NCBI GenBank assembly: GCA_051294375.1
Contig: CM119267.1
Coordinates: forward strand, 24,873,783 to 24,937,782
DNA from: Paraspadella gotoi
Lineage: Eukaryota; Animalia; Chaetognatha
DNA: 64,000 bases
Direction: 5' to 3'
In this document: positions 17,837 to 59,500 of the stretch, piece by piece
Position numbering within the stretch: the stretch's first letter is position 1
Layout of the letters: each line of letters starts with the position of its first letter
The notes under the pieces: model-generated
What the model was told of the DNA's origin: nothing
What the model saw: only the letters and a program-made list of their open reading frames with translations
Database searches by the model: none
Position numbers and translations under genes: made by a program

Positions 17837-17963
17837 TTTGTTTTTTAGAATTAATGACTAATTGACTAGTTCTCTTTTTCGATTAAAGTTCAAATAAACA
17901 TTGCTAAAAAAAAATTGAAAAACATAAAAATATTAACATATCGTTTTACACCAGGTTTTACAC

Positions 17964-18504: not shown

Positions 18505-21500
18505 CTAGCTAAAATCATGGTTGGTGGAATCGAAATAGACGATGTACTCGGGATAAGCCTGAGAATTCTCAAAGATGATGACCATGTGCTTGTCGTCATT
18601 GGTGCAAGAGTTGTAGAGACCCTTCAACTTGTCATTGGGGTCGATTGGATGGGGACGAGTCAGGCCTCGCTGCCCGATGTGGCTCCGCCCGACGACGACA
18701 CGAGCGCGGATCATGCAAGCCGCGGCGGCCGCCTGCCAATGCAAGAGATCAACGAATCTTTAAAGTATACAAAGTATTACATAGTAGAAAAATCTTAAAA
18801 GCATAAGGATCGTCGCAATCGCATGAGAAAAATCTGGGTTGACGACAAATTTTGATACTAAAAAAAAACAAATTTGAAAAAAGAAAATTAATTTATGAAC
18901 AGAAAGAAAAATAAAAAAATAAATTAAAGAAAGAATAAAAAGAAAAGAAAGAATAAAAAGAAAAGAAAGAATAGAAAGGAAAGAAAGAATAGAAAGGAAA
19001 GAAAGAATAGAAAGGAAGGAAAGAATAGAAAGGAAAGAAAGAATAGAAAGGAAAGAAAGAATAGAAAGGAAAGAAAGAATAGAAAGGAAATAAAGAATAA
19101 GAAGGAAAGAAAGAATAGAAATGAAAGAAAGAAAAATAAAAATAAAGAGAGAGTGATGAGAAGAAAGAACGAAATAAAAACCCGATGTTGCAATAGTAAA
19201 ATGATAACATACACGAATGTGATGCCTAATTTTACGAGTTCAATCCTAATTCAATTTTTTTTTAAATAAAAACGCAGAGAGAGAGAGAGAGAGAGAAGCC
19301 AAATCGTTTTCGGATGAATCAGCAGTGGCAGCAGCAGAGGCAGCCAGAAAAAAAAAAAGAAATCAAAAGGCAGCAGGAGAAAAGAGAGAAAAAGAAAAAA
19401 AGCCCCTTCAGAACCAGCTGCAGACTCGTTTTTTTTTTCTCGATGAATCAGCCTGGGGAAAAAAGAGAGAGCTCCCTATAATTAAAAGAGAAAAGAGAGA
19501 GAGAAGGAGACATAAAAATAAAAGAGAGGAATTTGTTTGTTTTGATAAAACATAAACAAAACATATTTAATAACTGTCCTCACCCAATTTTAACAACCTC
19601 GATGATGAGAAGCTGTATATAAATTTTCAGCTTCATACACCCAAATTTAATCATCAAAAAGGCGATCGATAAGTTGGAACGCCACTTATGCGCAAAAGCG
19701 TTACGAGATCGTCGTAAACGCAAAGCGATTGCGACGATAAAAACGAAGGGGACGTCTGTCCTGCCCTAGGTGCGAGGTATCTCACCGACAACTAGCGCTA
19801 AAGGCTTTGGACCTTTCAGTGATCATACCATATCACACTTTCTGGGGATCGAACCCGGAACTCACAATTGGTAAGCGAGTGATTATCTGCTCAGAGTTCA
19901 AGCCATTGGGACGAGCTCGATGGGCGATTGCTAAACAGGAGGCGAATTTATGATAATTTATAATTTATAATAATTGATATCGCCACAATGCCCACTTTGA
20001 CCACTTCCCAATACAATTTTATTCTGGGTCAAATAATTGGGACCGAACCAACCTGATTTCCATTCGGCGGCCGAGTTGCCTGGGGAACACGGACGACTGG
20101 GATTTTCGACGATAAAAAAAGGTGTAGAAAGGGGAGAATAAAAAAATAAAAGGAGTGAAAAAAATAAATAAAAATATAAAAAAATATAAACAGAATTATG
20201 GATTTAAATGGAAGATCGAAACAAAAGATGGAAAGAATGGAAAAAGGAAAATAATCGGGGATGAAGAAATAAAATGTTAACATGGATTTTGAGTGGAACA
20301 AAGAAACGAATTCTTACCTTTGCTGGCTATATGATTGGGCAACTGTGCCTCGTGTCCGTACTGCCGGTGGATATCGTACTGACTCTTTAAAAAGGCCTGA
20401 AGCTCTTGACCGTAAAACTGGTCACAGTAATGAATGGAATAATCCGCGTGCGAGGAGAAATAGACGCCTTCGCCCCAAAGGCGGGCGTTGCGTCCGATTC
20501 GGAGATCGAAGCCCTCTTGGCCGATGCTGCGGGCAGCGCCCTCGTTCGTGCCGTGCCACATCCACCGCTCGTCCAAGGCGGCTTCGGCGCCCACTTGCTC
20601 TTGAACGATCTTTCGCTGATAGAAGAATCGTTTCCACAGCAACTCGTTCTCCACCCTCTTGACTGCGACGATGGGGACGGGGATGTTCCAGTCCGCCGCC
20701 ACGCGGGCGAACTCTGCTGACTTCGGATCTACGTCGACCAATGCGAAATTCGATTGGCTACCGCCGCTGCTGCTGCTGCCGCCGCCGCAAGCGAGGCGTT
20801 TCCCCTTTCCCTTGTCGTTACCCTTGGATTTCTAGAAGAAAAAACTAGTAAAAATTAGTTCAGTTTGTTTAGATGAAGGGAATTTAATTGAAAAACAAAC
20901 CGATTTAAAAGGGGCGACGACTTTAAGCAAACTCCCCGTCGGTTTTCTCGGCAACCAAGTGTCGGGATAGACGACGTCCACGTCGGAGCCTTTTCCGTCG
21001 TCTTCGTCGTCTCCGGCGACGCCGCCTTCGTCTCCGCTCAGACTCTCCACGATCTCGGCAAAGTAGGTCTCCTGATCTCTCTCGGCGCCGGAAAAGGGTC
21101 GTTTGGCAACGAAGGCAGCCACTTTGAGGATGAGGCGCTCCTCGCCGAACCCTGGGAACATCTCGAGGAAGACGGGCGCGCGGTCGGCGAGGAAAGCGAC
21201 CTCGCCCGGAAGATGCGCGCGCAACTCGGAGGTGAAGTTGTCGCGTCGACGACGAAGTCCGTCGCGGACGAAAGAAAGGATTCGGTCGTAGACGAAAACT
21301 TCGTCCATTCCGTACACCTGGCATTTTTTTAAATTTATTTATATCAACTCAATTAATAAAAAAAAAATTAACTTATTTCTTTCTGTTAATATTCAAAATC
21401 AAGTTTTCAGATTTTCAACTCAATTAACGTCACTACTACTAGCAATAGACTTCCCCCGCTCTATTTCAATTTCCACCCTTCTTTCTTTTCACTCGTCTTT

Positions 21501-22715
21501 CTTCAGGCGACCCACCCCTAATAACCCTCCACGCTTTGTTGTCTGATCGCCTCACCAATCACCATCCCCCTTTCCCCTCAGACACCCACCGTCTCATCGT
21601 CGATGACGTTCTGAACCATGATCAGCAGCTGTCCTCCGCTGATGTCAGGATGATCTTGGACGAGGCGGAGCAGGATTCTGCCGCAGCTGGATTCTGAACC
21701 GTCGAAGACAGGCTCGAAAGCGGGAACCGGAAGAAGGGCGGAGGTGGAGGTGTCGGCATCGAGAGAGCCGGAGGAAGTGGAGCCGTAGCCGGAGCTGGAA
21801 GGCAACGACGAGGCGGTAGCGGACGACGAGGCGGAAGCGGACGACGAGGCGGAAGAGGACGACGAGGCGGAAGCGGACGTCGAAGGAGAAGCGGATGAGA
21901 ATTGGAACAAATAGTCGGGCAGCGGAATGAAATCCGCAGCCGCCGCCGCCGCGGGATCGATGAGCGCGGAATCGCGCAACCAGATCGCGCTAATCGCGAA
22001 GATAGGACATGCGAAAGGTTCAAGGCAAAAGCTGGCGTGGCTAAGGACCCATTTCCAAAAGTAACCGTGCCAGTACCAGTTGTGGCAACCTGGGCGGATT
22101 ATTATTTTTATAAGTTCTTTCAAAAAAAATTCTTTTTTCCTTCTATTACATGGTGACAATTTTACAAGCGCCGGTAGAAATACGATGTCATTTGCAAACC
22201 AGTGGTTATTTCATTGATTTTACAATTTAGTTGAGTAGAAAATACTAAAACTATTTATGTGTTAAAATTTTATATTGATCAGTTAAGATATACCTTGACA
22301 ATGAGTGGAGAAAGTTAGTTTGTAAAATTGAGTTTCATTTTCCAATTCACTTTTTTTAGATTTAATTTTTTTTTCTTACTTTCAGTAAGTTTTCTGAAGA
22401 AATTTGAAATAAAATAATATTATTATTATTATCTTCTGAAAGCCCTTTTAAATCTAAAAAGAATGACGTACTTACAAATACTGTAGTATAAAATTTAACT
22501 GGCCCAGCTTTAATTTAATTAGGATACTCAAAAACGAGACGTCTTTTTAAAAATCAATAGCTGGAGAGTAAATTTATGATATTTATCTAGAGAAAAAACA
22601 AAGTTTTTAATTGTGTTACAACGAATTTAATTAGAGATACGGACATGTTTCGGCTCACATTTCGAGCCTTCATCAGCGTTTGCCATAAGGAAAAATATTT
22701 GTGAAAAAGAAGGGT

Positions 22716-22757
<42 letters not shown>

Positions 22758-22863
22758 GTAAAGGTTTTCCAACAAAGTGGTGAGACAGAATAGTGGTCAG
22801 ATGAGAGAACAGGCTGAAGTTGAGGACAGATTGAGTGAGTTGGGAAAAGAAATGAAATTTGTT

Positions 22864-22901
<38 letters not shown>

Positions 22902-23673
22902 GGACAACAGGGATAAATAAATAAGTATTAAAGATACATTTTGTAATGTACAACAAAAGTAAAAAATTTTGAAAAACTAAATGTCAGTAAGAGTTTAACA
23001 ATTACTAATTTAAATAGTTAGTAAAGGATAGTAACATGAATTATGAAATTTGAAATGTGAAAAAGATAGATTGATAGTTAGGAGGATAAGAAAGTGAAAT
23101 ATAAGGAGAAAGAAAGAGCTCAAAATGAGCTGGCCCCCCTTGTTTTATATGCAAATGAAGGACAGAGACGATGGTGCCAGGTCATTAGCGCGTCATAGGC
23201 TGAGAGGAGAGTGTGGTTGACCAGTGAATGTTGCACTGGGTATCGAACCTGACGGAAAGATTCCCAGAGCCACTCTTATGTCTCTTTGACCTGTTGTGCC
23301 TGCTGGCTGCCCTCTTCTCGCCTGCTGGCGAGGTGGGCGGTTGTCCGTTCTTGCCGCTTTCGTGACAGGAGTGGTGGACTCCTCTCCCTCCTCCTGATAG
23401 CCGTCGTTTTGGGCGGCGCCCAGTCGCCAGAGAGAGGGACTGAGTTGCTTCATTTGAGCTCTTTCTTTCTCCTTATATTTCACTTTCTTATCCTCCTAAC
23501 TATCAATCTATCTTTTTCACATTTCAAATTTCATAATTCATGTTACTATCCTTTAGCTAACTATTAAATTAGATAATTGTTAAACTCTTACTGACATTTA
23601 GTTTTTCAAAATTTTTTACTTTTGTTGTACATTACAAAATGTATCTTTAATACTTATTTATTTATCCCTGTTG

Positions 23674-23713
<40 letters not shown>

Positions 23714-23818
23714 ACAAATTTCATTTCTTTTCACAACTCACTCAATCTGTCCTCAACTTCAGCCTGTTCTCTCATCTGACCACTATTCTGTCTCACCACT
23801 TTGTTGGAAAACCTTTAC

Positions 23819-23863
<45 letters not shown>

Positions 23864-26559
23864 CCTTCTTTTTGCACAAATATTTTCCTTATGGCAAACG
23901 CTGATGAAGGCTCGAAATGTGAGCCGAAACATGTCCGTATCTCTAATTAAATTCGTTGTAACACAATTAAAAACTTTGTTTTTTCTCTAAATCATAACAA
24001 CAACGAAAACGAAAGGTTTATCGCATCATGATATTTATCAAATTGTGATTGGCTATCTTAAATCCTTTTTTCTCAGGATCTTTCATGATACTTATATAAA
24101 ATAATAATATTTTATGTTATACATAATTTAAACAGGTCATATATTTTGAAAAAAGATTATAAATTTTAAATAATTTACTTTTAACACTCTTAATTGAACC
24201 AAGGCTGGGCAGCTCACTTTTTATGTTAAAGCTTTCGTAAGTATATCATTCTCTTCATATTTCTAAGGGCTTTCTGAGGATATTAATATTGTTAATAATT
24301 TAATAAATAATTTGTTTAAAAAGTGCTAAAAGTTAAAAAAAAAATTTGAATTTAAAAACAGTGAGCTGGAAAATGAAACACGATTTTACAAGCCAACTTT
24401 CTCCACTCATTGTCAAGGCATATCGTAACTGATCAATATAAAATTTTAACACATAAATAGTTTTAGTATTTTCTACTCAACTAATTTTTAAAATCAATGA
24501 AATAACCACGGGTTTGCAAATGACAGCATATTTCTACCGGCGCTTGTAAAATTGTCACCATGTACTAAATCTATTTTCAATGCAACTTTTTGAATTAGTT
24601 CATTGGGTTGTTTTATATTGGATATTACCAATTTCATAAAATTCAGCTCATAGTATTGATGCTAGTGCGGAGTACGTACATATAGTATTCCCCGATCTAA
24701 TACTTTGAGGAGTGGCTTTTCATACATTGAAACATTCTTTGAAATATTATACCACTTCATTGATGAGGAAGCCAGGTTCACTGGGAGTGAATAAACAAGT
24801 CTGTAGAAGAGGCTTGATTAAAAGCTGTGGCAAGTGTGATGGAGGCCTTAAACCACCAAAGCCTGTCCAAAGTCAGGACAAGATAGCTTATTTTAAATGG
24901 ATGATAATTTTTATATGTTGTACCAATTTCATATTAATAAATATTTTAAAACTTCAGTGCAACAACCAATGAACTAATTAAAAAGTTGCATTGAAAATAG
25001 ATTTAGTACATGAAAATTTTACAAGCGCCGGTAGAAATATGCTGTCATTTGCAACCCGTGGTTATTTCATTGATTTTAAAAATTAGTTGAGTAGAAAATA
25101 CTAAAACTATTTATGTGTTAAATTTTATATTGATCAGTTACGATATGCCTTGACAATAGTGGAGAAAGTTGGCTTGTAAAATCGTGTTTCATTTTTCCAG
25201 CTCACTGTTTTTAAATTCAATTTTTTTAAAAAACTTTTTAGCACTTTTTAAACAAATTATTTATTAAATTATTAACAATATTAATATCCTCAGAGAAGCG
25301 CGCTGTAGAATCTCTCTCGTTGGGGGNNNNNNNNNNNNNNNNNNNNNNNNNNNNNNNNNNNNNNNNNNNNNNNNNNNNNNNNNNNNNNNNNNNNNNNNNN
25401 NNNNNNNNNNNNNNAATTATCCATCCATTTAATAAATAAGCTATCTTGTCCCTGTCTTTGAACAGGCTTTGGTGGTTTAAGGCCTCCATCACACTTGCAA
25501 GATAATAACATAACAGGTTTCTGCATATAACAAATATATAACAAATCACAAGAACATTTTTTATAAATTTTCTTTTTTAAGAACGGATTCTTATAGAACT
25601 TGAAAAGTTAAATGAAAGTTAGTACTACAATTTTTTAAAATTTTGACAATAAATTGGTTAAAAATAGAAAAAACCATAAAAAATCATCATCATCATCATT
25701 GGCTGAATTTTATGGTTTTTTAAATTTCTTATCAGTAAAACAAAAAAATTTAAAAAGTTGTATAAATAACCTTTATCTAACTTTTAAAGCTTTACCAGAA
25801 TCTATTAAAAAAATTGAAAAATTAAAAAAAAAATTTAAACTTTATATAGTAATAAAATAATCTTTAAATGCTTCCGTGCACTAATCAATAAGATAAAGTT
25901 TTAAAATTATTTTTATTTTCATATTCTTTAACATTCGCTTAACCATTATTTATTTGAGAGAACTTCAAGTTTTCAACCTGTTCCGTCCTAATAAGTATAT
26001 ATTATAATTTTTAATATGTAAATGAAGTAATAAACTGACCGAGACAGTCAGGATCGTGACGGAAGTAAGAAAGAAATTTGAGACACTTGGGATGAAATTG
26101 GCAGCGAAGGGCGATCTCGTCGATTCCCTCGTGAAAGGCGATGATCTCCGCTCGTTCCCGAATCAACTTCTTGATGAAGTCGACTTCGCAGGAGGAGAAT
26201 TTTAATCGAAACCAATCGCAACTTCTTTCGTCGACGTCGAACTTGAGCTGTTTGCCCGACGCGTTGCCCGACGGCTCAGCGTCGTCGTCGGGTTTTCGTT
26301 TGAACGTCGGGACAACGTAGTTTGCGTTACTCGGTCCGGCATCAATGGCGTTGCTAGTTCCCGCGCTGCTCTCGTATAAAATGACGCATTCGTCGTCATC
26401 ATCGTTGCCCTTTATCTTATAAAGATTATGAAGATTAACGTCGTCGTTGACGGGGACCTGACCGTCTTTTTTATCGTCATTAATATCGTCTCTGGGTTCA
26501 GACTTCTTTGATTCAGAAACATTGAACTCGACTTTGTCGTCGTCGTCGTCAGCGGACAT
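18505..26559 (-). CDS. PARP-family (ARTD) protein, probable mono-ADP-ribosyltransferase
   Basis: Exons 26040-26559, 21590-22089, 20901-21317, 20318-20831, 20053-20096 and 18505-18732 join in phase. Motifs: VKRVENELLW, MWHGT, WGEGVYFS, YSIHYC, ARVVVG, MVIIFENSQAYPEYIVYF. Confidence 0.85.
18791..19742 (-). mobile_element. Full-length HINE-like element in the last PARP intron
   Basis: Both termini present (subterminal IR ATCGTCGCAATCGC / GCGATTGCGACGAT), internal 18-bp array, A-run flanks, no TSD. Confidence 0.75.
19746..19950 (-). mobile_element. Truncated LTR of the twister-LTR family
   Basis: The reverse strand matches the 55768-56040 LTR (GCTCGTCCCAATGGCTT...GGGTTCGATCCC...TCACTGAAAGGTCCAAAGCCTTT); the ribozyme core is partly deleted. 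Confidence 0.7.
22632..22687 (-). ncRNA. Minimal type I hammerhead ribozyme (PLE-type)
   Basis: Reverse complement of the 23890-23945 copy. Confidence 0.85.
23890..23945 (+). ncRNA. Minimal type I hammerhead ribozyme (PLE-type)
   Basis: ACG-CTGATGA-A-GGCTC-gaaatgt-GAGCC-GAAAC-AT-GTC-CGT; palindromic stem III (ACATGT); predicted cut after C23935. Confidence 0.85.
24277..25292. repeat. Long inverted repeat (MITE-like or assembly fold-back); a related arm lies at ~22149-22560
   Basis: ~24277-24612 is the reverse complement of ~24960-25292; the repeat abuts the N gap at 25327-25414. Confidence 0.6.
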
Positions 26560-32800: not shown

Positions 32801-35800
32801 GATTTTGTTCATGACTGGAAAACCAACAGAGTAACGAAATTAATTGTTTAATTCTCCCCTTCTAAACTATCCCATACCGTGTTTTAACTTCTTACCTAGA
32901 ATTTTTTAACAACCAGATTGAAAAACAAATCTTTTAAAAATGTGCTTACCCATTTAACTTAACAATTTTGTTATTTACCCATTTAAAAAAAATTATTGAA
33001 AACGGAATGTTTACTTATAAATAAGAATTATTTTTTTGTGATTACTGATGACTATAATGTATTTCTCGATATATTAGCTCTAACACATCAATGATTACGT
33101 ATTGTTATGCTGAATGACCTTTCCTCTTAACGAGAAATCTGAATCTGTTCTCAGAATTAAAAAAAAAAAAACATTTTGAAATTTTGACATTATATAAGGG
33201 TAGTACTATATACAAAATAAGCTGACTGGGCTACTACATTTGTAAAAAAAGAAAAATAACTACAAATTAGTATTCACTAATATGATAGTTTTCAAGATAT
33301 AATTTAGATACCTCACTCGAGAGCCAATATTATTTTATTTTTTTATATATTTTTATGCCGGTCCCTGGAGGATGATATCATATTCACTTGCAAGAAACCG
33401 TTTTTAAAATTCCTAACGAACTGCGGTGGAGTAGTATCTTCACGAAACGGACTGCGGGAGTGATACGGGTCTGAGCGTCCACGAGCGCCATGCCACCAGG
33501 AAGTATGCGTCAAATATGATTTCTTATGTCACGAGTCTCCGAGAAGAATCTATTAATAAAACTATTCCTTTACGGAGTTTAATCGTTTCTTAGATTATCT
33601 GAACGGCGCGATATAGGTTGATATGAGATCTTATTTAAGAGGAAGAGAGAGAAAACGTTGATTGCTTGATCTTTCACAGTCAGTAATACTCATGAAATGT
33701 GGTAAGACGGATGGGAGAGATAAATCTCTGAAACAGTGATATGGTCTCGATCGAGGGACACAGGAAAGTGATCTATGTTCTCTAAGGCGATTAAGTTTTA
33801 TTTTAAAAGTTTTAAGGTATGTGTACCGAATAGGATAAATTGAGATACTCCCGCTTTGCTGAAATTTTTATTTAACAAAGATTTGTACTGCGTAGTTCAA
33901 ATCCTTAGTTCTCTCACGGTAAAAAAAGTTATTTTCTTAAATAACTTTGGAAAGAAAAGAGGTAGGAAAGTGGGTGAGGTATTAAATTAAAGCCCTAATC
34001 ATGGGACACCTCTTGAAATAGTTTTATTAAATTTTATCCATAAATCTTTACACAGCTTTTATTTAAATCGGAGTTAAAAGTATAACCGTTTTTTGCATTA
34101 AAAATTTCAATGAAGGCATGTGAAATTTTTTTTCTTCTTTCGTAATTTGAAAAAGGAAAGACTAAATTACATTTTGATTACATTAAATTTGCTCTACTCT
34201 ATAAATTTGCTTGTATTTTTTAGTTAAAGTAAAAAACAAGCAAAAATTTATGAAGTAGCTGGATAAAATGTTTTTTTAAATATGAAAAATGATAAATCAC
34301 AAAATATTTTCAGATTGATTATAACAGTCTGGACGTCTACCTTCTTGTCTGTGAAAAAAAAATTGTCATTTTTCATTATCTTCAACTGCAAACAAAAAGC
34401 TTGACACGCTGCTTGTTTATCATAATAAAATTTTAAAAAATTACATAGCTGGTGACATATTTGACAAAGCAAGACATCATTGGTTTATTTGTATTGATAA
34501 TTTTCTTTTAAATATAACAACCTTTATACAAGGAATTTAATTCTTTTACTTATCATCCGTTTAAATTAAGAAAAAAAATTTCGCGGAATAGCCCATTGGA
34601 AAGGGTTCATTGACTGACTTAATGATCGAATTTTTTAGGTTTCTTTACTGCCCCCATTTCACAAGACATAAAAGGTCATGATTATCATGTCAGTATGTCC
34701 AGATTATCTGTACCCTTTCTGCAACCTGCATTCTGAATTTTCTTTTTTTCCCTTTCAAATGTATTAAATAAAAAAATTATTTGAGAGAACGATTGGCGTG
34801 GAGGATGCCATTGGTAAACCTTAGTTACCCCACTTCCCGATCGAATTTTTAAACGAGGTTTTTTTTCCATCTATTCGAGACATAACACTAACTATTGGTA
34901 CTATTAATTTTTTATTTTTTTCATGAAATTTTGCGTAATCAGAGAAACGTTTAGCGTGTCAAAAAAATATGGAAAAAAAAGAGAAAAACGTTCTGACAAA
35001 TTTAAAAATTTATGGAGGAATCTGATATAATTGCTAAATTTCAATTCCAAACTTTCACTTCACCCTAAGCACCACATTAAACAAAGTCAATAGCTAATCA
35101 AGAAAGAGCAACATAACAACATAACACCTGGATCGGCGAGGACAAAGAGAGGTGGCGCTCTAGAATTGTTTTTATAGCGCCACTCGTCAGGAATCTCTTC
35201 TTTGAGGTAAACGGTGACGTTGGGTGAGATGCGACTCATGTTCGCTCGCAACTCCCGAGGGTCGACGCCGGGTTTGGGGTAAATTAACTTACCCGGCGAA
35301 GTTCCGAAGGCGTCGAACAAGGCAGAGTCTCTGGATTGGATGGGAAAAAAGGCTTTGAAATGCTAGTGTCAAGGCTGTCTTGTCTTGCGGATCAAAGCAG
35401 ATCGAGTACTATTCTATCTTTCTATTCTTTGTAATTTTTAAGACATTTTTTAAAATTTTTTAAGAGATTTCTATGATATTTCTCGATTTCCTTAAAATTT
35501 CTTTGAGATTTCTTTATAATCTTCCGCTGATCTCGCTGTGATCCCTTTGCAATGTCTTGGCGATTTCTTAGGGCCATCTGTGCTCTCTTTCTCACCTTTC
35601 TTCACAAATTAAGAAAGAGATGTAGTGTGGCGGTATATTCACACCGCCTCACGTCCACCATCCTTCAGCCAAATCCATTGGCTCAGAGGGGGAACACACC
35701 ATCCCAGGCGTAGTGTTCCATCCACAGTCCTAACAACTTCCCTCTGCGTTGGCAAGGCGAGACCGTCCTAGGGTAACCGCGCCAGAGACTGGAGGCGTCA

Positions 35801-37803
35801 CTGAGGGTCGGAAGCCCCCAAAGCCAACAGTGAGATGCCCCATCCCAATGGGCATCACAGGCAACCCGACTGTTGCCATAAGTGGTGAGCCCTACTATCA
35901 AACACGCAACCTTCTCAGGGTACGCTACCACAAACGCCTATGCCCTGCCGACTACGGGTACGCTACAACAAATGCCTATGCCCCTGGGGTACGCTACGAC
36001 AAACGCCTATGCCCCCACAACTCGCGCTCTCTCTCTCTCTCTCTCCCACTATGGTAACAGTCTTGTCAGACACCTCTCAGGCTTGAGGAACCTGGGTGAT
36101 GTCTTGACCCGGGGATCCTGTGGCGGTATATTCACACCGCCTCATGTCCACCATCCTTCAGCCAAATCCATTGAGGGGGAACACACCATCCCAGGCGTAG
36201 TGTTCCATCCACAGTCCTAACGACTTCCCTCTGCGTTGGAAAAGCGAGACCGTCCTAGGGTAACCGCGCCAGTGACTGGAGGCGTCACTGAGGGTCGGAA
36301 GCCCGCAAAGCCAACAGTGAGATGCCCCCATCCCAATGGGCATCACAGGCAACCCGGCTGTTGCCATAGTAGCATCTTTTTACCTATTACCTTGACAGCA
36401 TTATCAAACAATTATTTTCAAGTGAAAGAAAACGACTCACGCAAATTCAGCAAGATCGAAGACGACCGACACGTTGGCCATCCCGTGATCTGCGACGATG
36501 ATGACGTTCGTCCTCGCGGCCAATCCTGTCTCCCGCAGACTTCGGTCAAGATAACCCAACGCATCGTCGCTGATTCGGACGGCCGCGTCTATTTGAGACG
36601 ACTCGGGGCCAAAAAAGTGGCCGACGTGGTCAGCTCCTGGGAAGTAACTGCGAATAAAAGGGGTTCAATTTTAAGGGACAAGTCTATAAAAATAAATCTC
36701 GAGGTGTGGACGTTACATCATCCCGAAGTTGATGGGACGATCCTCGGCCAAAAACCAACTGAGCATCAAATCGATTCTGTCTTCTGCAGGCATCGTTTGG
36801 TTGTAAGGAATGTATTTGAAAATGACGCCTAAAAACGAGAAAGATTTTAGTAGCGCCAAAAGTAATCTCGTTTATCCTACTTTAGTTTTTAATGCTTATA
36901 ACTCGAGTAATACTGGATCATTTTGATTAATTTGTTAATAATAATTATATTTATTGTTTTCCCCTCGGCGGTCGAGTCGGCACCTTTGTCCAAAAAGTCG
37001 ACGCCGTCACCAGGCCAAAAGACAGAGCCGCTGCGACACTCGGCGCAGAGCCGCTGGTTGAGCAGCCAAATGGGGAAAGCGGCGTCGTTTTGGCGCCAGA
37101 ATCTCGTTTCGCTGTTGTTGAGGAAGAAGGGCGCCCCCAATTCGGCGTCGAAGAAGCTGTTGGCTGACGGAAGCGGAGAGTCTTCACAGAGTAGCTCAGA
37201 ACTATTTTCACAGTTTTCGCTGGACGAGCAATTGGGTTCGGACCAAAGAGAAGTCAAGTTTACAAACTTAAACATTAAAGACTACGACATTCTGAGGCAA
37301 ACTTAGAAGCCATTACATAATTAGCATAGCTCATATAAATATCCTGCGTTTCTACAGTTTGGCAAATTGCCGAATTCGTTCACATTTTTATCACCAACGC
37401 GAGAGAGTTCGCCTTCGCTTCCTCACCGATGATCCCGTGTGATTCGGCGAAAAGCCCGGAAGCGATGGTGAAGTGACTCGTGAAAGTTTTGGGGATGAAG
37501 ACCGGCTCCAGTCCCTTCGACGCTACGACTCCCGCATCGCGGAAAGCTTCGAAGGCGGGGAGAGATCCCTTTAGTCGCTCCAAGTAATCGTATCTGGGAG
37601 AAGGAAGAAGTTTTAGAATATTTTCTCGATCCCTCGCTCTCGCTCTCTATCTCTCTCTCTCTCTCTCGCACACGGACACACCTCAACCCGTCAAAAGAGA
37701 TGACGAGAAGAAGATTAGGTTTTTTCTTCGAAGGAAGACATTTTGAATCCACCGCAGCAACGATCACGAAGAATAAAATGAGATTCTTCTTCCTCATCGT
37801 CAT
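26893..37803 (-). CDS. Ectonucleotide pyrophosphatase/phosphodiesterase (ENPP4/5/6/7-like), membrane-anchored
   Basis: Signal peptide then LVISFDGLR; PKTFTSH (catalytic Thr); GLFAESHGII; PIW; FWPG; YFPGADHVGHFFGP; IIVADHGM; YLKEEIP; GDHGY; FLARGPAF; DVYPLM; hydrophobic C-terminus. Exons ~37682-37803, 37426-37593, ~36962-37170, ~36717-36828, ~36441-36647, ~35127-35331, 26893-27287. Confidence 0.9.
27331..27700. repeat. Dispersed AT-rich repeat; reverse copy at ~44440-44800
   Basis: TAGAGTGATGTGAAAAT...TAGTGGGCACCAGTG matches the reverse complement near 44670-44800. Confidence 0.65.
28423..30134. mobile_element. 1.7-kb TIR element present in only one of two duplicated ENPP-intron copies
   Basis: Ends CATCTCGAACAAAACCTCGTACG / CGTACGAGGTTTGTTTGAGATG; the empty site is seen at ~32865-32885. 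Confidence 0.7.
29431..29688. mobile_element. Small MITE with internal satellite-like units
   Basis: TIR AAACAAGTTTGAGCAAAC(A)ATGTCGGATCTGC; the interior has AAAATGATACAAGTTG-type units. Confidence 0.7.
35748..35828 (+). ncRNA. Twister ribozyme, type P5 (LTR1 of copy A)
   Basis: P5 GTTGGC/GCCAAC; P2' GCGA; GA; T1' CCG; P1 TCC-TA-GGG; TAA; P2 CCGC; GC; P3; P4 AGGG-TCGGAAGC-CCCC. Predicted cut U35774|A35775. Confidence 0.8.
36235..36315 (+). ncRNA. Twister ribozyme, type P5 (LTR2 of copy A)
   Basis: Same layout, with perfect P3 CAGTGAC/GTCACTG. Predicted cut U36261|A36262. Confidence 0.8.
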
Positions 37804-48745: not shown

Positions 48746-51700
48746 TCAATCCGCCCCGGCCGCTGTCGTATCATCCGACTCGTCTCCTTCTTCCTGTTTG
48801 TAAACAGGGGGCTCGGTGATGGTGGAGCCGCTCCGCACCGCCTCCTCGCGGCGCCGGCGCCGCCTTTCCCGCCATTTTCGGCATCTGTTGTTCCAGTGGA
48901 TGATCATGTAGATGCTGACGATGAAGAGGAGGCCACCGGTAGCGCCGACTATGATGAAGACGCGGATGAGAAGGGGGACTTTGACGAAGTGAACGCGGAT
49001 GGGAAATCGAAAGGTGAAGTCACACGACGGGAATCTGAGAATAATAAAAAAAAAACAAAAAAAATTTTTTTTAAATTCGTAAACCCCCCCCCAAAAAAAA
49101 AGAAAGAGGGGAAAATTTAAAAAAAAATGATGTGGCGGTCTATTCACACCACCTCACGTCCACCATTGTTCAGCCAAATCCATTGGCTCAGAGGGGGAAC
49201 ACAACATCCCAGCTGTAGTGATCCATCCATAGTCCTAATGACTTCCCCTCTGCGTTGGCAAAGCGAGACCGTCCTAGGTAACCGCGCCAGTGACTGGATG
49301 TGTCACTGAGGGTTGGAAGCCCCAAAGCCAACAGTGAGATGCCCCATCCCAATGGGCATCACAGGCAACCCGGCTGTTGCCATAAGTGGTGAGCCCTACT
49401 ATCGAATACGCAACCTTCTCAGGGTACGCTACGACAAATGCCTATGCCCTGCCGACTTCGGGTATGCTACGACAAACGACTATGCCCCCACCACTCGCAC
49501 TCTCTCTCTCTCTTCCACTATGGTAACAGTCTTGTCAGACACCTCTCAGGCTTGAGGAATTTGAGTGATGTCTTGGCCCGGGGATTCTGTGGCAGTATAT
49601 TCACACCGCCTCATGTCCACCATTGTTCAGCCAAATCCATTGGCTCAGAGGGGGAACCCACCATCCCAAGTTTTTATTGTTCCATCCACAGTGCTAACGA
49701 CTTCCCTCTGCGTTGGCAAAGCGAGACCGTCCTAGGGTAACCGCGCCAGTGACTGGATGCGTCACTGAGGGTCGGAAGCCCCCAAAGCCAAGAGTGAAAT
49801 GCCCCATCCCAATGGGTATCACAGGCAACCCGGCTGTTGCCATAATGGCATAAATTAAATGAAAGGAAGAAAAAAAACCTTTCCGCGATCCCAATGTTGG
49901 AGAATTCCATGAGAAAGAAATAGACGGGCGGAATGAACCACTTGAGCGGAAGGCGATTGTAGCAGTCGAGCGAAGAGACTTCGCAACCAAATTGAAAGTA
50001 ATTCTCTAAACTTCCGTCGTAGATCTTTTGATTATGAACTGTGCACTCGCGATCTTTTTGGTCGGGGAACAGCGGGATCTCGCTGAGACGAAAAAAGAAT
50101 AGAGAGAGATTCGCAACCAAATCAATAGTGAAGAGGAGAGGGGGCGAGAGAGACCTGCTTGAAGAGTCGGACTCGGGAACGGCGAGAATGGCCTCGTCAG
50201 GTTTGAAGAGATCCTTCTGGTGAGCGGAGGCGCGGCACAAAGGGTTCGACTTCATCACGACGTCGGGGGTCCAATACTCTAGCTCTTTCCAATTCCTTCC
50301 GCCGCCGATGATGTTCAAAGTGAATTTGTCGTCGTACAATCGAGTCCAGCCGGTCGACTGCGAGTCGGGCCAAAGGAACGACAAACGCACACACTCTTTC
50401 TTTCTCTCTTTAACAGTCCCACCTGTTGTTCAAAATAGAACTGAGGCTGAAAGGATTCCAGACTGTGCAGACAGATGGGAACGCCGGCGGGGTTGTAGCC
50501 GATCGGAGGTCCCTCGTCGTCGATGTCGATGCAGTCCCAGTGCGAAGATTTTAAACGAGTTCTATTAGTAATATTTAAAACCTTATTGGTTAAAATTTTA
50601 AAAAAACATGGGGCTTATTGTACATCAAATAGGACCCCAGATCCCTCTGTTAGACAGGGATGAATTCCAAATCGCGCGGATGGCTTCGGTTCAATGGTTA
50701 CGATCACAATAAGGAAAAAAAAATACAGATGAAGAATAACAAAAGGAAGGCACTTTTCCTAATTTTTCCGGACCTGTTTATCCGCACACTGATATCCGGC
50801 GGGCACCCGATGTGGACCGTCGTCTTGGCAACGCCAAGGAACGGAGACTCTGTCTCGGAAAGGCGTTCGCCACGGAGCGGACAGCGGAATCCGGCTTCGG
50901 TCAAGCGAAGAGAAACTTCCACAGGTACGTTGGCCACACCAGGCGCCTGTTGGGGAATGATTGACCGAGCCAGATCGCTGGCCGTCGGAAAAAAGATACA
51001 AAATTTACTCGAATTTCCGGGCAAAGATCATTTTCATCTCGCGCCAACTGCAAACCTCGTCCTTATCGACACCAAAAAGTCGATAGTCAAGTTCTCTAGG
51101 TGCACGACTTTCTGGACGGTGAACTGCAGCAGCGTCGCGTCGGAGGTGCTGACGATTAGATCCAAATCCCTGAGACGATCTTTGAGTTTCCGTCGAGTCT
51201 CGATCCGCAAAGACTTAAACCCCTCCTGGGTCGAATTTATCGCATTCTCCGACAAAGGCGGGAGGTTCAAGTCCTGTGAGTGGTCGTGGACGTTAAGTCA
51301 TCAAAAGTAGTCAACCGCCAAAGTTTAACCGCTGAAACCTTTTGCAGGATGTCGTCGAGAAAGCTGTTGATATTGTCGAGGACGGCGTGGACTTTAATGC
51401 TGATAACGGACTCAATGACCCAGATGTTTTCGGGAAAGGCGGCCAGCGTCTTGGTGAGCTTGGGCCGGTTCAGATAAAAAACGTCCGTGTAAAAAAGGCT
51501 CGTTTCTGCTTGTACTTTTTTGTACTGCAGGAGACGTCGGTCGATGGATGAAATAGAATATTCATAATTCGATTATTAGTGAGAGTCAATTTATGTTAAT
51601 TAAATCGAAGACTGTTAAATTATCCACCCGCAAAAAATTGGAGATGTTCTTAGCGAGATCGAAGTAGCCTCTTCCGCTCATGTGAAAGAGCGCCATTCCC

Positions 51701-53552
51701 TTTTGGTCGCCGAAGTACTTTGTCCAGAACTTTTCATCGGTGTCCATCGGGAGGTTCTGATCCTTGAGAACCTCGAGAGGCAGGGAAGCCACCTTCAAAA
51801 TTAATTTGAGGAGGATACAGTCGAGCTTCTCCCACCTCTTCCTTTTCTATCGCTTATTCTTTCAATTCCCTCGCCTTTCCTTTCTCTCACCGTCCAATAA
51901 GCCAACATATCAGCTTCGGACAAATAACCCGGCGGATCGCGCCACGCCTCTGGCGAGTGAAACGTCCAATGGTTATTACTGAAAAAGCGAAAAAAATAGA
52001 AAAACCGCGATATAAAAAGCCTACCATACTGTATATATGAGAAAGGACAACCGAGTGGCAACGGCGTAAGGCTCTATCTCGTAGAAAACGCGAGCATACG
52101 GGCAAAAGCCCCGGTTGTAAGCGGTGGGAGGCAGAGAAGGGGGCGGGGAAGAGGGGTTCTCCTCCTCCTCCGCAGCCAACGACTCCGCCTCCTCGTTGGC
52201 GAAAAAGGCGGCTAAGTTTTCCGTCGTCCACATATCGTCGAGAGGAAATTCCTCGTGATGAATTCCACCTGAATGGAGAAGCTCCAAAGTTTAATCCCAG
52301 CATTATCATATCACCATCAATTCGCTATCATATCACTATCATGTCAATAAATCATCATAAAACGACCTCCGCCATCGCAGAGAAGAAAGACTCGGCCGAA
52401 ATCATCCTGAGTCAGGCCAACGGGTTTGTCGCAATCGAAGGATCTCTTCAACCTTTCGGTGTCGATAAGGGAGAGGGGGAATTAATCCTTATTGTTATCC
52501 CACCCGGCCACGCCTACCGATCTCGACTTGGCATTATTCACCGAATCAGCGTCAAAAAAATGGGATCGGACAGATCGGTCCAGAGATGAAGATCAGTCAA
52601 AGGATCCGCGACCAAGACGAAGAATCCCGAGGCGGCTTTGGCCAGCCAACAAAAAACGCCCTTTTTAAATTGGTCATGGGAAATTAATTTTGACTCATAA
52701 TAAAAAATCTTAAAAGCATAAGGATCGTCGCAATTTTGATACTAAAAAAAATTAAATTTGAGAAAAAAAAATTAATTCTATTTTGCGATTGTCAATTAAA
52801 AAAATAATAAAGTACCGAGGAAAATTAAAGTTACAGTTTCTGAAAAAAAAAAACTTTTTCATTGTCAAATAAACTGATCAGCAGACGCAGCCCTGAGAAA
52901 AAAAATCTTAAAAGCATAAGGATCGTCGCAATTGCATAGAAATCGTGGATTGACGACAAATTTTGATACTAAAAAAAATCAATTTTGAAAAAAAAAAAAA
53001 AATTATAAACAGAAAGAAAAAGAAGAAAAGAATAAATAAAGAATAGAAAGGAAAGAAAGAATAGAAAAAAAAGAATAGAAAGGAAAGAAAGAATAGAAAG
53101 GAAAGAAAGGAAAGAAAGAATAGAAAGGAAAGAAAGGAAAGAAAAGAATAGAAAGGAAAGAAAGAATAGAAAGGAAGAAAGAATAGAAAGGAAAGGAAAG
53201 AAAGAATAGAAAGGGGGAAAAAGAAAATTAATTTATAAACAGAAAGAAAAATTCTATTTTGCGATTGTCAATTTACAGTTCTGAAAAAAAAAAAAAAACA
53301 AAGTAAAATAACTTATTTTCGAGTTTAACTTTAAGCACGCATAAGCAAGCAGTTTGATCGAATGCGACCTCTCTAAACACTGTCAGCATTCCCAGACAAA
53401 AGACAAAGTGAAACTTGAATCAGACTGACGAAGTGAAGTAAAGACTAAAGTGAAATAAAAACCCGATGTTACTATAGCAAAATGATAACATGCACGAATG
53501 CGATGCCTAATTTTACGAGTTCAATCCCAATTCAATTTTTTTTTAAATAAAA

Positions 53553-53589
<37 letters not shown>

Positions 53590-56500
53590 AAGAAATCAAA
53601 TGGGCAGCAGGAGAAAAGAGAGAAAAAGAGAGAGCCCCTGCAGAGCCAGCTGCAGACTCAAAAGGCAGCAGCAAAAGCAGCAGGAGAAAAATAAGAAAAA
53701 GAATAAGCCCCTGCAGAGCCAGCTGCAGACTCGTTTTTTTCCCCTATGATTATGAATCAGTGAATAGGGAAAAGAGAGAGGGAGAGAGACATGTAATTAA
53801 AAGAAAAAGAGAAGAGAGAAAGAAATATGAAAATAAAAGAGAGAAAATTTGTTTGTTTCGATAAAAAGTAAACAAAACATTTAATAAGCACATCGATGAT
53901 GAGAAGATGTAATATAATTTTCAGCTTCATAAACCCAAATTTAATCATAAAAAAGGCGATCTATAATTTGGAACGCCGACGACGACGACACTTATGCGCA
54001 AAAGTGTTACAATATCGTCGCAAACGCTTAGCGATTGCGACGATAAAAAGGAGAGAAAGAAAGAGAAAGAAGCCAAATCGTCTTCGGACGAATCAGCAGC
54101 GGCAGCAGCAAAGGCAGCCAGAAAAAAAAGAAATCAAAAGGCAGCAAAAGAAGTAAAGAGAGAAAAAGAAAAAGCCCCTGCAGAGCTAACTGCAGACTCG
54201 TTTTTTTTCTACGATGAATCAGCCTGGGGAAAAGAAAGAGATGGCTACATATAATTAAAAGAGAAAAGAGTGAGAGAAGGAGACATAAAAATAAAAGAGA
54301 ATTTGTTTGTTTTGATAAAATGTAAACAAAACATATTTAATAACTGACCTCACCCAATTTCAAGGACCTCGATGATGAGAAGCTGTATATAAATTTTCAG
54401 CTTCATACACCCAAATTTAATCATTAAAATGGCGATCGATAAGTTGGAACGCCGACGACGACGACGACTACGCCACTTATGCGCAATAGCGTTACAAGAT
54501 AAAAAGAATAAAAAGAAAAGGAGGAGAGCGGAGACCTTGGGTGTGGAAACGTAGGCGACCATCTTGAGCGGAATGGGTTTGCCTCCCACGTTGACGGGAT
54601 ACTCGATCCTCTTCATCTCGAATCCTGTCCACGTCACGGAGACGATCCCCTTGCCGGTGTTGAGGCGGATGAGGGCGTCCATTGCTAAAGTAATTAATTT
54701 GAATATTATTATTCGATATGAGTTATTTAATTTGCACAGTGCAGTCTTTGAAGAATTGTTAACATCAGGTAAAAATTGAAAAGCGCTGTAAAATTCGTCG
54801 TCATCAATATTTTTTATACATAATTACATATACAACTTGATTGCCATACCCGTAAGCGATCCGTCGAAAGCGACCTGATCCTCATCAAAATCAGCGCCGA
54901 TCGAGACTCGGGCGGTGACTGACCAAGCGCCGCGTCCGGGCCTCGGCATCGCCAGGAGGCGCGAGTTCCGCTTGTAGAGGACGACCCGCGCCGCGGATCC
55001 GTCGCTCACTACAAAGACGAAGGCGAAGCGAAGAGTCGTGGAGAGACGAGAGCCGAAGACTGGATGAGCGAGATGGATCGAGTTGTTAGTGGTTTTACTC
55101 AGTTGTCGTTGTAAATGTTTAAGTTTGAAAAACCCATCAAGCCAAATCATTGAACAGAAAATTAAGACAAGGAGGCGAAAATAAAAAACAATCCGCCCTC
55201 CTCGCCTATGGAGCAAGAAGAGACTCCTTTAGAGAAGAGGAACTGGCAGAGATCGCGTCCTTTGTTGTCTTCAAAATCGGCGAAGACGGTGAGATCTGTC
55301 TTCGTCTTGGAGTCTCGCTTCGAGTGGATCGCACAGTTGAAGTAAGTCCAAGTTGTTGCCCTGATTCAAGGATCGAGATTCGCCGCATTAACCTTTCGTG
55401 CCAAGTATATACATACTTAAAATAAAGTGGTCTCGACATCGATATCGCTCCGCCGGACATCGCTATCGCTCCACCCGACATTGCTATCACTCCACCCGAC
55501 ATTGCTATCACTCCACCCAACATTGCTATCGCTCTACCCGTCATTGCTATCGCTCCAACCTTTCATTGCTCTCGTTCCATTGTCGCCCACAGTCTATCAG
55601 CTGCGGTCTCCGGACATGAGGCACCTCGCGGTTGAACAGATCGCACGAGAGACAAATGCGAGTCGTGTTGAGGAAAATGGAGACGTAATGCTGAAAATAT
55701 ATCAATACATAAATTCTTTTTGTTTCGTTGTGTATGAGATTTAACAAAAAATTGGTTTTTAGGCAACTGGCGAATCCTAAAATTCGCCTCCCGTATAGCT
55801 TGGAGAAACTCAGCTCGTCCCATTGGCTTGGACAGCTAAGTACTCGTTCAGCTAAGTACTCGTTCACCAACCGTGAGTTCGGGGTTCAATCCCCTCACGG
55901 TCAAGCTAGTTAAAGTGTGATGGTGTCGGCATAAACACGCCAGTGACATGGGGTGGTCACTGCAGGTCCAAAGCCCTGAGCGCCAGCTGTTGGGAGATGC
56001 CTCACACCCCAGGCATCACACATGTCCCCCCGTTGCCATACAACAACGATTTTTAAAAAAATTATATAGACATGTTTCGACTCTCATATGAGTCTTCATC
56101 AGCGCATTGATAATTTGTGAAATTTCGTAACAGAAGAGAGAGTGACCTTTGGTGTGTGTGTCTCTCTCTCTCTCTCAACATGTCTGCTTTATTAAAATAA
56201 AATCGTTGTTGCCTCAAAAACCATTTTTTCGTTAAATATATAATTGTATAATCTGTATTGTATAACAAACTTTTCCGTCATTAGAGACGCCGACGATGGA
56301 ATCGAAGAAGCCGGCCTGAGGAAGAACCTGGAGTCTTTTCACACAAAAGGTGGACTTAGAAAACTCATCCTTGAGCAGACGAAGCGTCGGACGTGAAGTC
56401 ATGTAGAGGACGCCTGATTGAGAGTAGTTCTGAAAGCGGAAGCAAGGGGTTCTTCATTATGTTGCCTAATTTTCGTTCTTGCAGTATTATTTATACTATA

Positions 56501-59500
56501 CTACACTATATTTATAATATAGTCTCATCGGGAACATTTGTACATTTGTTAATTTTGTTGTTTATTTGTCAAAGTCTGGACAGTTTTCTGTGATCAATTA
56601 TTTAGTGATTATGTCATGGTGGATTTGTGCACCGACCTGTGGTGACTTTAACTCATCTAGTTTCTTGTCGTCCTTGACGCTCGTCTTCTTTTTGGGCGGA
56701 TACCAACCGACGAGTTCGAGAATTCCTTTAGAAGTCGCGAACACCACTCGTTCCTTTCGATCGAGACAAGAGATGAGATCGAGGCGGAATCCGCGCCTCC
56801 CCCCCCCCACTGCCTGCCCCGGGTCAACCCAGCTCCAGGACCCAAAGAAAAACGTACCGAGAGGGCGACAGCGTCGTATATGACAAAATCTTCTTGGATG
56901 CCGCAAACCCCGGAAAAACCGGACACCTTTAAGTTGAAATGATTACATTTTTAATAATTCAATAAGACGCTTTTTGGTCTGTTTCTTTCTTGGGTTTCTA
57001 TGTCCTTTAACATTTTATAACAAAAAGAGAGAAAGAGGTTACGGAAAAAGAGAAAGAAGCGAAGAGGAAAAAGGAGTTAATCCATTTTTTGAGAGGCATG
57101 ATTCTGAAAGTTTTTAAATGGTAAATTTATTTTTTTTTCGGTTTTTCATACCAGATTTAATTTTTTTGTTTTTTGAGCAGCAAAGATAGAGAGGAAGACA
57201 GAAGTCTTTGAAGCTTATACAGCTTATACAGAAGGCTTCATATTATAAAATGAAGTACCTTTTTTTGAGACCAGAACACGTTCCGAGAAAACTACTGGAC
57301 CAAATTTATTGAAATTTAGTATGAACGATCCGAGGTGAATACAAAAAGAACTATTGAGGCGAATTTCAATATTGAACCCCTGAGTCGAGATATGGGGCCC
57401 CGGAGGGGTCACCCTTAGGGGCAAAAAATGGTTAAATTTTTTCATTATTTTTGTTTTCATTTTTCATTAACATCAGCAGTTAAAGTCAGTTTTGGAATAA
57501 TTTAGGAAAATTGGAAGTAAAATGATGAACCATGCATATTAAAACTATGCTTAATTATTGTTTAGTTTTAAAATGTTTTTTTCATATGTTTAAAACGTCA
57601 ATGCACCTGATGCATTGACGTTCAAAAAATGGAAAAAAATTCGATCGGGAAGTTTGGTGGGTAGTTTGGTCACAAAAAAAGTACCCATTTTATAATATGA
57701 AGCCTTCTGTAATTCTTAACAAAAATTTAAATCTGGTATAAAAACCAAAAAAAAATACAAATTTATAAAGGAAAAAGAAGATTCTAAGGGAAAGTTGGTT
57801 AGAGAAATGCGTCCAAAAACAAGAACCAGTGGCTGCGCCAATACATGTAAATCGCTTTCAAAGGCTTAAACTGAACTGTTACAGCGGCAATAATAATATA
57901 TTTTTAAATTTGCATTTTTTTAAAACTTTTTCATTTTTTCAACTTGTATTCTTTTAAACTTGTATTCTTTTAAACTTGTATTATTTTCAGCTTGTATCAT
58001 GTTTTTAAACTTGTATCATGTTTTTAAACTTGTATCATGTTTTTAAACTTGTATCATGTTTTAAACTCGTATCTTTTAAACTGTATTTTTTAAACTGTAT
58101 CATGTTTTTAAACTGTATCATGTTTTTTAAACTCGTATATTTTTTAAACTGTATCATGTTTTTTAAACTCGTATCATTTTTTAAACTGTATCATGTTTTT
58201 AAACTCGTATCATGTTTTTAAACTCGTATCATGTTTTTAAACTGTATCATGTTTTTTAAACTCGTATCATGTTTTTTAAACTCGTATCATGTTTTTAAAC
58301 TCGTATCATGTTTTTAAACTCGTATCATGTTTTTAAACTCGTATCATGTTTTTAAACTCGTATCATGTTTTTAAATCGTATCATGTTTTTAAACTCGTAT
58401 CATGTTTTTAAACTCGTATCATGTTTTTAAACTCGTATCATGTTTTTAAACTCGTATCATGTTTTTAAACTCGTATCATGTTTTTAAACTCGTATCATGT
58501 TTTTAAACTCGTATCATGTTTTTAAACTCGTATCATGTTTTAAACTCGTATCATGTTTTTAAACTCGTATCATGTTTTTAAACTCGTATCATGTTTTTAA
58601 ACTCGTATCATGTTTTTAAACTCGTATCATGTTTTTAAAACTCGTATCATGTTTTTAAACTCGTATCATGTTTTTAAACTCGTATCATGTTTTTAAACTC
58701 GTATCATGTTTTTAAACTCGTATCATGTTTTTTAAACTCTATTTTTCATGTTTTTAAACTCGTATCATGTTTTTAAACTCGTATCATTTTTTAAACTCGT
58801 ATCATGTTTTTAAACTCGTATCATGTTTTTAAATCGTATCATGTTTTTAAACTCGTATCATGTTTTTTAAACTTGTATCATGTTTTTCAACTTGTATCAT
58901 TTTTTTCAACTTGTATCATTTTTTTAAACTTGTATTATGGCAACGGGAGGATAGCCTGTGATACCCGGGGCGCGGGGTATCTCACCAACTGGCGTAGGGG
59001 CTGCGGACCCTCAGTGACCGCCTCCTGTCACTGGCATGTTTATACTGGCACCGTCACATTTAAGCCAGAACCGGGATACCCAGGGATTGAACCCGGGACG
59101 CACGGATGGAATGAGATGATTTAGCCTGCTCAGCCATTGAGACGAGGCTGAGGACGGACAGCAGTGAGGCAGCGTTAAGTCTTGCTGCCACAGTATCATG
59201 TTTTTCAACTTGTATAATTTTTTTCAACTTGTATCATTTTTTTCAACTTGTATCATTTTTTTCAACTTGTATCATTTTTTTCAACTTGTATCATTTTTTT
59301 CAACTTGTATCATTTTTTTCAACTTGTATCATTTTTTCAACTTGTATCATTTTTTTAACTTGTAACATTTTTTTTAACTTCTATCATTTTTGTCAACTTA
59401 CATAATTTTTTTAACTTGCAGCTTTTTTTAACTTTCAACTATCTAATTATCAAGTTCCATTAGTGAGGCAGTGAGGAAGTTAAAATATGTGTCCATTTTC

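Follow-up and report, generated by a model that had tools for sequence, protein, structure and literature searches.

Hammerhead-bearing LTR retrozymes are known from plants (Cervera 2016, PMC4918200), and circularisation of the excised monomer has been proposed for them (PMC4918200, PMC9695139); in animal non-LTR retrozymes, circularisation by RtcB has been shown (PMC7229834). Animal retrozymes are stated to lack LTR, PBS and PPT (PMC7761336, PMC7229834), and certain SINE-like repeats of Schistosoma combine a Pol III promoter with a downstream hammerhead (PMC6765202). Helenus, or TRIMp3, elements are terminal-repeat mini-retrotransposons (TRIMs) that have a tRNA-like sequence in the LTR and, in animals, 4-bp TSDs; they were described from six animal phyla, and their use of Pol III is untested (Kojima 2024, PMC10886601). 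On its own, a TRIM whose LTR carries a tRNA promoter is thus not new. Helenus and retrozymes are listed separately in the available part of a further source (PMC13570524), and the accessible text of Kojima 2024 contains neither "twister" nor "self-cleav", with ribozymes appearing only in a reference title (PMC10886601). In the literature outside subscription journals, covered mostly through listings, no report of a twister in an LTR or of a TRIM with both promoter and ribozyme was found.

The window analysed here, a stretch of 64,000 nucleotides from the chaetognath Paraspadella gotoi, contained two full TRIMs (A and B; about 714-743 bp) together with C, D and E, three LTRs that have diverged. 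Copy B and these three LTRs were located by a profile built from the first five LTRs, with an extra match at E 2.3 discarded.

35626..36368, plus strand: full TRIM copy A, 743 bp (5' LTR 35626-35880, internal region 238 bp, 3' LTR 36119-36368)
49131..49844, plus strand: full TRIM copy B, 714 bp, same family as A
58936..59192, minus strand: solo LTR C, ~70% identity to A, exact TSD ATAC
55768..56040 (about), plus strand: solo LTR D, 62-65% identity to A and 73% to C, probable TSD CAAC
19737..19987 (about), minus strand: degraded LTR E, 79% identity to D
35883..35892, plus strand: PBS TGGTGAGCCC, starting 2 nt past the 5' LTR of copy A
36111..36115, plus strand: weak polypurine stretch GGGGA, ending 3 nt ahead of the 3' LTR of copy A

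LTR identities within A/B were 92-97%: the LTRs of copy A (255 and 250 bp) were 97.2% identical to each other, and those of copy B were 92.5% identical to one another and 92-94% to those of copy A. The TSD was exact in copy A (GTAG) and read ATGA/ATGG in copy B, and the LTR termini were TG...TA. The PBS was present in both full copies and resembles the tRNA-Trp PBS listed in the accessible part of Kojima's work, from which we infer the identity of the primer; GGGGA alone made up the PPT, which is weak. No sizeable ORF of known kind was found in copies A and B, with their LTRs of ~255 bp. The element is, on its sequence, almost certainly a non-coding TRIM.

Pairing was kept across subfamilies A, C, D and E, despite differing sequence, in hairpins at the start of the LTR (35626-35652) and after the ribozyme described below (35830-35859), and the recurrent LTR hairpins outside that ribozyme in A, C and D gave z values of -1.9 to -2.9. 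The internal region of copy A (35918-36014) held three imperfect repeats of ~35-40 nt (two in B), each a predicted hairpin, followed by a (CT)n tract.

With regard to its surroundings, the window comes from an intron-rich animal genome and encodes PDZ, L27, PARP and Dpy-30 domains, its closest named protein matches in one protein search being two fish MPP-type MAGUKs. A second dispersed repeat, AT-rich and ~1 kb long, was present in at least five copies (7288-7915, 9560-9742, 18776-19743, 53439-54500, 60600-61468 and 63299-64000), four of which share GTTCAATCC (at 9596, 19238, 53519 and 60919); LTR E adjoins one copy of this repeat, and LTR C is inserted in a 19-nt tandem array (57889-58930 and 59193-59400). 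Long nested inverted repeats at 22144-24567, with arms of 120-250 nt that are 90-96% complementary, are foldback/MITE-like, and a B-box match lies at their centre (23249, minus strand). An intronless-looking frame of 729 aa (15668-17857, minus strand) has a Dpy-30 motif at its N-terminus and a long acidic repeat of 5-residue units.

A tRNA-type Pol III promoter had been proposed inside these LTRs in the first-pass annotation, and the motifs that it quoted were all confirmed at the positions where it had placed them.

35679..35690, plus strand: A-box-like motif TGGCTCAGAGGG of copy A, 1 mismatch, its 5' half doubling as an arm of a small hairpin
35714..35724 (11-mer; core 35715-35723), plus strand: degenerate B-box-like motif GTTCCATCC of copy A
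59136-59125, minus strand: perfect A box TGGCTGAGCAGG of LTR C
59093-59083, minus strand: perfect B box GGTTCAATCC of LTR C, inside a 6-bp T-arm-like stem
55883-55893, plus strand: perfect B box GGTTCAATCC of LTR D, whose A box is poor
19855-19845, minus strand: perfect B box GGTTCGATCC of LTR E

Boxes were scored against type-2 consensus motifs, and the chance level was determined by dinucleotide shuffles. LTR C carried A and B boxes with 0+0 mismatches, 43 nt apart, a combination that occurs nowhere else on the two strands of the window and was equalled by none of 1500 shuffles; their spacing corresponds to tRNA geometry, with a 6-bp stem around the T-loop. The pair of LTR E was matched by 1/1500 shuffles, its best A box having 2 mismatches, and in LTR D the B box was matched by 5/1500 and the pair by 73/1500, with 3 mismatches in the best A box. 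Six perfect B boxes were found in the whole window, three of them at equivalent positions of LTRs C, D and E. For copy A, the best box pair of the 5' LTR had 4 mismatches and was matched by 370/1500 shuffles, which is the chance level. The B-box-like motif of this LTR, with 1 mismatch in the 9-nt core and 3 in the 11-mer, sits in a hairpin of 3-bp stem and 7-nt loop, and in the 3' LTR the A box has been lost through a 6-nt deletion. The gap of 25-35 nt that had been given for the two boxes applies to LTR C (31 nt), but copy A has just 23-24 nt. When LTR C was aligned to A, its B box fell ~8 nt downstream of GTTCCATCC in three of four gap settings, and the homology of the copy A motif to the B box of C, D and E is ambiguous. 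The LTRs of copy B (B5 and B3) gave box pairs at 1/300 and 16/300 shuffles, which were left out as promoter support because the best pair there is a different one, drawing on P5 and L4 of the twister itself.

The Helenus-type box pattern (TRGCY...YGG; GGTTC) was found in subfamily C, and its B-box part in D and E; family A has TRGCY together with a degenerate B box and a chance-level pair. TGGCT, which is conserved in the LTRs, also forms a hairpin arm, and its conservation could be explained by structure. In the window, ARAGORN made no tRNA call at default thresholds and Rfam gave no tRNA match, and the 28 matches obtained with relaxed ARAGORN (ps80) were noise. In sequencing run X1, none of the variants listed at 10% or above lay inside either box of copy A (560 contigs), nor did any at 3% or above inside either box of LTR C (152 contigs). 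Taken as they stand, the boxes of this LTR superfamily are very probably derived from a tRNA, and subfamily C, at least, is probably driven by Pol III; that the boxes function in family A is a tentative proposition. The likely promoter is intact in subfamily C, has an intact B box in D and E, and is worn in family A.

The same annotation had pointed to the lack of TTTT in the 743 bp of copy A as a sign of Pol III. Copy A indeed lacks even T3, but the argument from T4 is weak, as only 19% of its letters are T: on counts taken on a slice offset by 1 nt, T4 was also absent from 905/2000 mononucleotide and 1609/2000 dinucleotide shuffles, and the absence of T3 was modestly significant (19/2000 and 164/2000, respectively). 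As a background, T4 was missing from 8/633 windows of 743 nt on the plus strand. LTRs C and D, like A, are without T3 (A3 runs number 9 in A, 3 in C and 5 in D); the 3' LTR of copy B holds a T5 run. Beyond A and D, the first T4 was encountered 8 and 10 nt into the flank. Overall, the T-run pattern lends modest support to Pol III.

Downstream of the boxes, the LTRs were predicted to fold into a twister ribozyme, whose start lies past the B box by ~25 nt in A and by ~15 nt in C and D.

35748..35828, plus strand: twister in the 5' LTR of A, P5-opened permutation, predicted cut 35774/35775, one P3 mismatch
36235..36315, plus strand: twister in the 3' LTR of A, predicted cut 36261/36262, one P4 mismatch
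59068-58987, minus strand: twister in LTR C, predicted cut after 59042
55906-55988, plus strand: twister in LTR D, predicted cut after 55932, Rfam twister-P1 E 0.0089

A twister was present in both LTRs of copy B as well, and in LTR E the 5' half has been deleted. The elements follow each other in P5-opened order, namely P5, the 3' strand of P2, GA, T1, a 2-bp P1, UAA, P2, GC, P3, P4 with the loop U-NNN-N-AGC, and P5. The defining features of twisters and the dispensability of P1 are described in the accessible parts of PMC5408937 and PMC5113685; the stems P1, P2 and P4 and the pseudoknots T1 and T2 were all found here, with P1 reaching just 2 bp. Across six copies of three subfamilies, 95.2% of 126 cells were paired, compared to 28-44% in slid controls, in a count that leaves out P5 (its columns are offset) and in which only three subfamilies are independent, related rows inflating the shuffle test. 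Six of the 21 twister pairs were altered on both sides, and pseudoknot T1 was 100% paired in three sequence forms, with two of its three pairs doubly changed. The conserved L1/L4 nucleotides (UAA, GC, GA, U...AGC) were invariant in 6/6 rows relative to the Rfam consensus, bar one L4 A, which is C in subfamily C; in family A, the first P2 position is unpaired.

A pairing descriptor of this fold matched five of the seven LTRs (A5, B5, B3, C and D) and no other site of the window, missing A3 by one P4 mismatch and E by its deletion, and gave no match in six controls of 128 kb. At the gathering threshold, Rfam gave no match in the window; its twister-P1 model placed the top matches at D (E 0.0089) and B3 (E 0.023), with scores of 16-22 bits that are far under the cut-off of 67.2 of this P1 model, which cannot fit the permuted 3' strand, and no twister-P5 match was listed. 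Hammerhead, HDV, pistol and hatchet readings of the ribozyme were ruled out by eye and by Rfam. A metagenome pattern scan for the twister core returned no match, and a pattern of B box plus L4 returned at least 120 loci, with no credible twister among the matches listed; a single descriptor match among these loci was rejected, its stems overlapping low-complexity GC text. Based on these comparisons, we consider with high confidence that the LTR ribozyme adopts a P5-opened twister fold. Copy A itself looks aged, with mismatches in both of its twisters and no A box in its 3' LTR.

As for the hybrid of LTR, tRNA-type boxes and ribozyme proposed in the first-pass annotation, it is supported at the level of the superfamily by the boxes of C, the B boxes of D and E and the covarying twister of A, B, C and D, but the case is weak in copy A, where it had been flagged and where the boxes are at chance level. 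Our main reading is that of an animal TRIM with a likely tRNA-derived Pol III promoter followed by a twister in its LTR, that is, a likely Pol III-driven retrozyme, to which we give a probability of about 0.55.

According to this reading, the element likely drives its own transcription and excises an RNA of unit length; Pol III transcription, cleavage and circle formation are all steps that we infer. In the 5' LTR, TFIIIC and Pol III would initiate transcription ~10 nt ahead of the A box. Meeting no T4 inside the element, Pol III would read on through the 3' LTR into the AT-rich flank, where the first T4 lies 8 nt beyond copy A. Both twisters would then cut at U|A, releasing a monomer of ~490 nt that bears a 5'-OH and a cyclic phosphate (35775-36261 in A) and is predicted to fold modestly well (z -2.0). 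Since cutting in both LTRs removes the terminal redundancy, the monomer would need to circularise, and ligation of the RtcB type may give a circle with one LTR equivalent whose promoter is inherited from the 3' LTR; a circular intermediate appears rather likely. Finally, a tRNA would prime at the PBS, and a Gypsy-type RT/integrase acting in trans would produce cDNA that exceeds unit length and carries two LTRs, and would insert it so as to generate a 4-bp TSD.

Among the sequencing runs recorded as RNA, none contained the element. Run X1, which consists of contigs only and whose kind was guessed as RNA, provided 560 contigs on A and 152 on C (run X2, with 2 and 1 contigs, was left out). Many different flanks were observed at both termini, so that each of the two subfamilies is dispersed and has many copies; in one contig, two C LTRs are joined. 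Copy A lies antisense in an intron of a host gene whose minus-strand exon (36441-36630) ends at 36441 with a GTGAGT donor and whose product, by reading of the exon peptide, may be ENPP-like; for an insert that cleaves itself, a bias towards the antisense orientation would be expected. In X1, the depth of this host exon was 52 from the bin starting at the splice donor, the intron flanks were at 0, and the element reached depths of 10^2-10^5. This pattern fits what RNA would give, and abundant transcription, although one exon in one run is no proof. A span of internal region, LTR and internal region was seen in none of the X1 contigs shown, and joints inside LTRs that "go back" were discarded as circle evidence, as they correspond to LTR-to-LTR mapping choices.

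Three other explanations have to be weighed against a Pol III-driven retrozyme. The boxes could be chance look-alikes in a GC-rich, structured LTR without tRNA ancestry, which is statistically true for copy A alone and agrees with the lack of any tRNA or SINE match by Rfam or ARAGORN. Nevertheless, shuffling almost never reproduced the pairs of C and E (0/1500 and 1/1500), and half of the perfect B boxes of the window (3/6) are co-located in the C, D and E LTRs; this explanation deserves very little credence overall, and for C, D and E it is largely refuted. Alternatively, the element could be a promoter-independent retrozyme. Its tRNA-like segment would then be a relic, or a module with a structural role, that has decayed in family A, and the unit would be cut by the twisters out of transcripts that arise from host Pol II, from read-through or from an unrelated LTR promoter. 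The abundance of family A in X1 (560 contigs), in spite of its chance-level boxes and ambiguous B box, would fit with this, as would the folding of the box regions into hairpins and the fact that the retrozyme LTR promoter tested in plants was not assigned to Pol III in the accessible text of PMC9695139. However, the perfect, well-spaced boxes of C and the perfect B boxes of D and E have outlasted an LTR divergence of 27-40%, the avoidance of T runs is strand-biased, and copy A is antisense to its host gene, whose pre-mRNA would therefore not supply it. We consider such a promoter-independent origin unlikely, though worth keeping in mind.

The remaining explanation accepts Pol III but dispenses with the circle. 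Here, a Helenus-like TRIM would start in the 5' LTR and use the twister of the 3' LTR only to form its 3' end, in place of a T-run terminator, leaving a terminal redundancy of ~105 nt for ordinary strand transfer. By eye, many fungal, bivalve and wasp Helenus LTRs in the accessible data have a T run soon after their tRNA part, where a twister is found instead in the present element. Yet the same ribozyme is present in both LTRs, so that the 5' copy should cut too and remove the redundancy, and the plant retrozyme tested had its 5' end at the site of self-cleavage, as far as the text of PMC9695139 was available; a linear intermediate is improbable.

A Pol III-driven retrozyme may have a counterpart in insects. 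In the LTRs of Helenus-2_SyJa and Helenus-2_SyUm from gall wasps (Synergus; PMC10886601 DataS1), we recognized by eye a type III hammerhead after the tRNA boxes, which goes unreported in the accessible text of the paper. It lies past the B box and comprises a GUC site, a 7-bp stem I, CUGAUGA, a 4-bp stem II, GAAAC and complementary loops, with a loop-loop complementarity of 12 bp. These LTRs have no T4, T4 runs being present in the internal part, and the PBS is that of tRNA-Trp. A hammerhead at the same position suggests a recurring design, of which this would be a second, independent-looking example. No hidden twister was seen by eye in the known wasp, fish and bivalve Helenus LTRs of the accessible supplement (PMC10886601).

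We put forward, as a possibility that falls somewhat short of our main reading, that the LTR elements of animals include a recurring and as yet unrecognised class, the Pol III retrozymes, in which a tRNA-derived promoter is combined with an interchangeable ribozyme (twister here, type III hammerhead in gall-wasp Helenus-2) and abundant circular RNAs are copied back by autonomous Gypsy enzymes. If so, these would be the first animal LTR retrozymes and the first with a twister, and a polymerase would be named for retrozyme transcription. An element joining both designs would also give eukaryotic twisters a biological role, make the polymerase that feeds a retrozyme testable, and explain how a Pol III LTR element manages without a terminator. 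Circular RNAs are expressed from engineered cassettes that combine a Pol III promoter, a twister and RtcB, and the present element would be a natural version of such a cassette.

Among TRIMs, Cassandra had been named in the first-pass annotation. It likewise carries a Pol III promoter inside the LTR, but, as summarised in PMC10886601, this is a 5S-derived type 1 promoter in land plants, with terminator-defined ends and no ribozyme described; Rfam found no 5S match here. Helenus/TRIMp3, with its tRNA-like LTR sequence and 4-bp TSD in animals, is therefore closer (PMC10886601). As far as that source could be consulted, the similarities comprise a non-coding TRIM of <1.3 kb, tRNA-type A/B boxes inside both LTRs, although at chance level in family A, a PBS, the 4-bp animal TSD, solo LTRs and several families per genome, and subfamily C shows the sequence characters of Helenus except for direct similarity to a tRNA, for which neither Rfam nor default ARAGORN gave a match. 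The present element differs in having its boxes within the 5' half of each LTR, with a twister and then another hairpin downstream of them and no T run, whereas by eye the tRNA part of animal Helenus LTRs is mostly near the 3' end (PMC10886601); in addition, its LTRs end in TG...TA and its tRNA likeness is limited to boxes and T-arm.

With plant LTR retrozymes, as described in the accessible text of PMC4918200, the element shares one ribozyme per LTR, a 4-bp TSD, a PBS, a non-coding centre, a GC content >55% and solo LTRs, and the plant model likewise has the monomer excised and then circularised. A self-cleaving ribozyme in each LTR (here as a predicted fold), a 4-bp TSD and a PBS were thus all found; the ribozyme, with no hammerhead match by Rfam in the window, is of another class. 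Plant elements have type III hammerheads, LTRs of 300-400 bp and, in that text, no reported tRNA-type promoter, in contrast to the twister, 255-bp LTRs and A/B boxes of this animal element. The non-LTR retrozymes of metazoans and the Schistosoma repeats are animal too, with unit RNAs released by ribozymes (PMC7229834, PMC7761336, PMC6765202, each in part), yet they are tandem repeats with type I hammerheads and without LTR, PBS or PPT. Twisters are also used by animal retroelements of the RTE/Perere type, where, according to the accessible sources, they occur once per element at the 5' end of autonomous non-LTR retrotransposons rather than in LTRs. Compared with all of these, the promoter-twister-LTR hybrid of this animal likely joins two designs that have so far been described separately.
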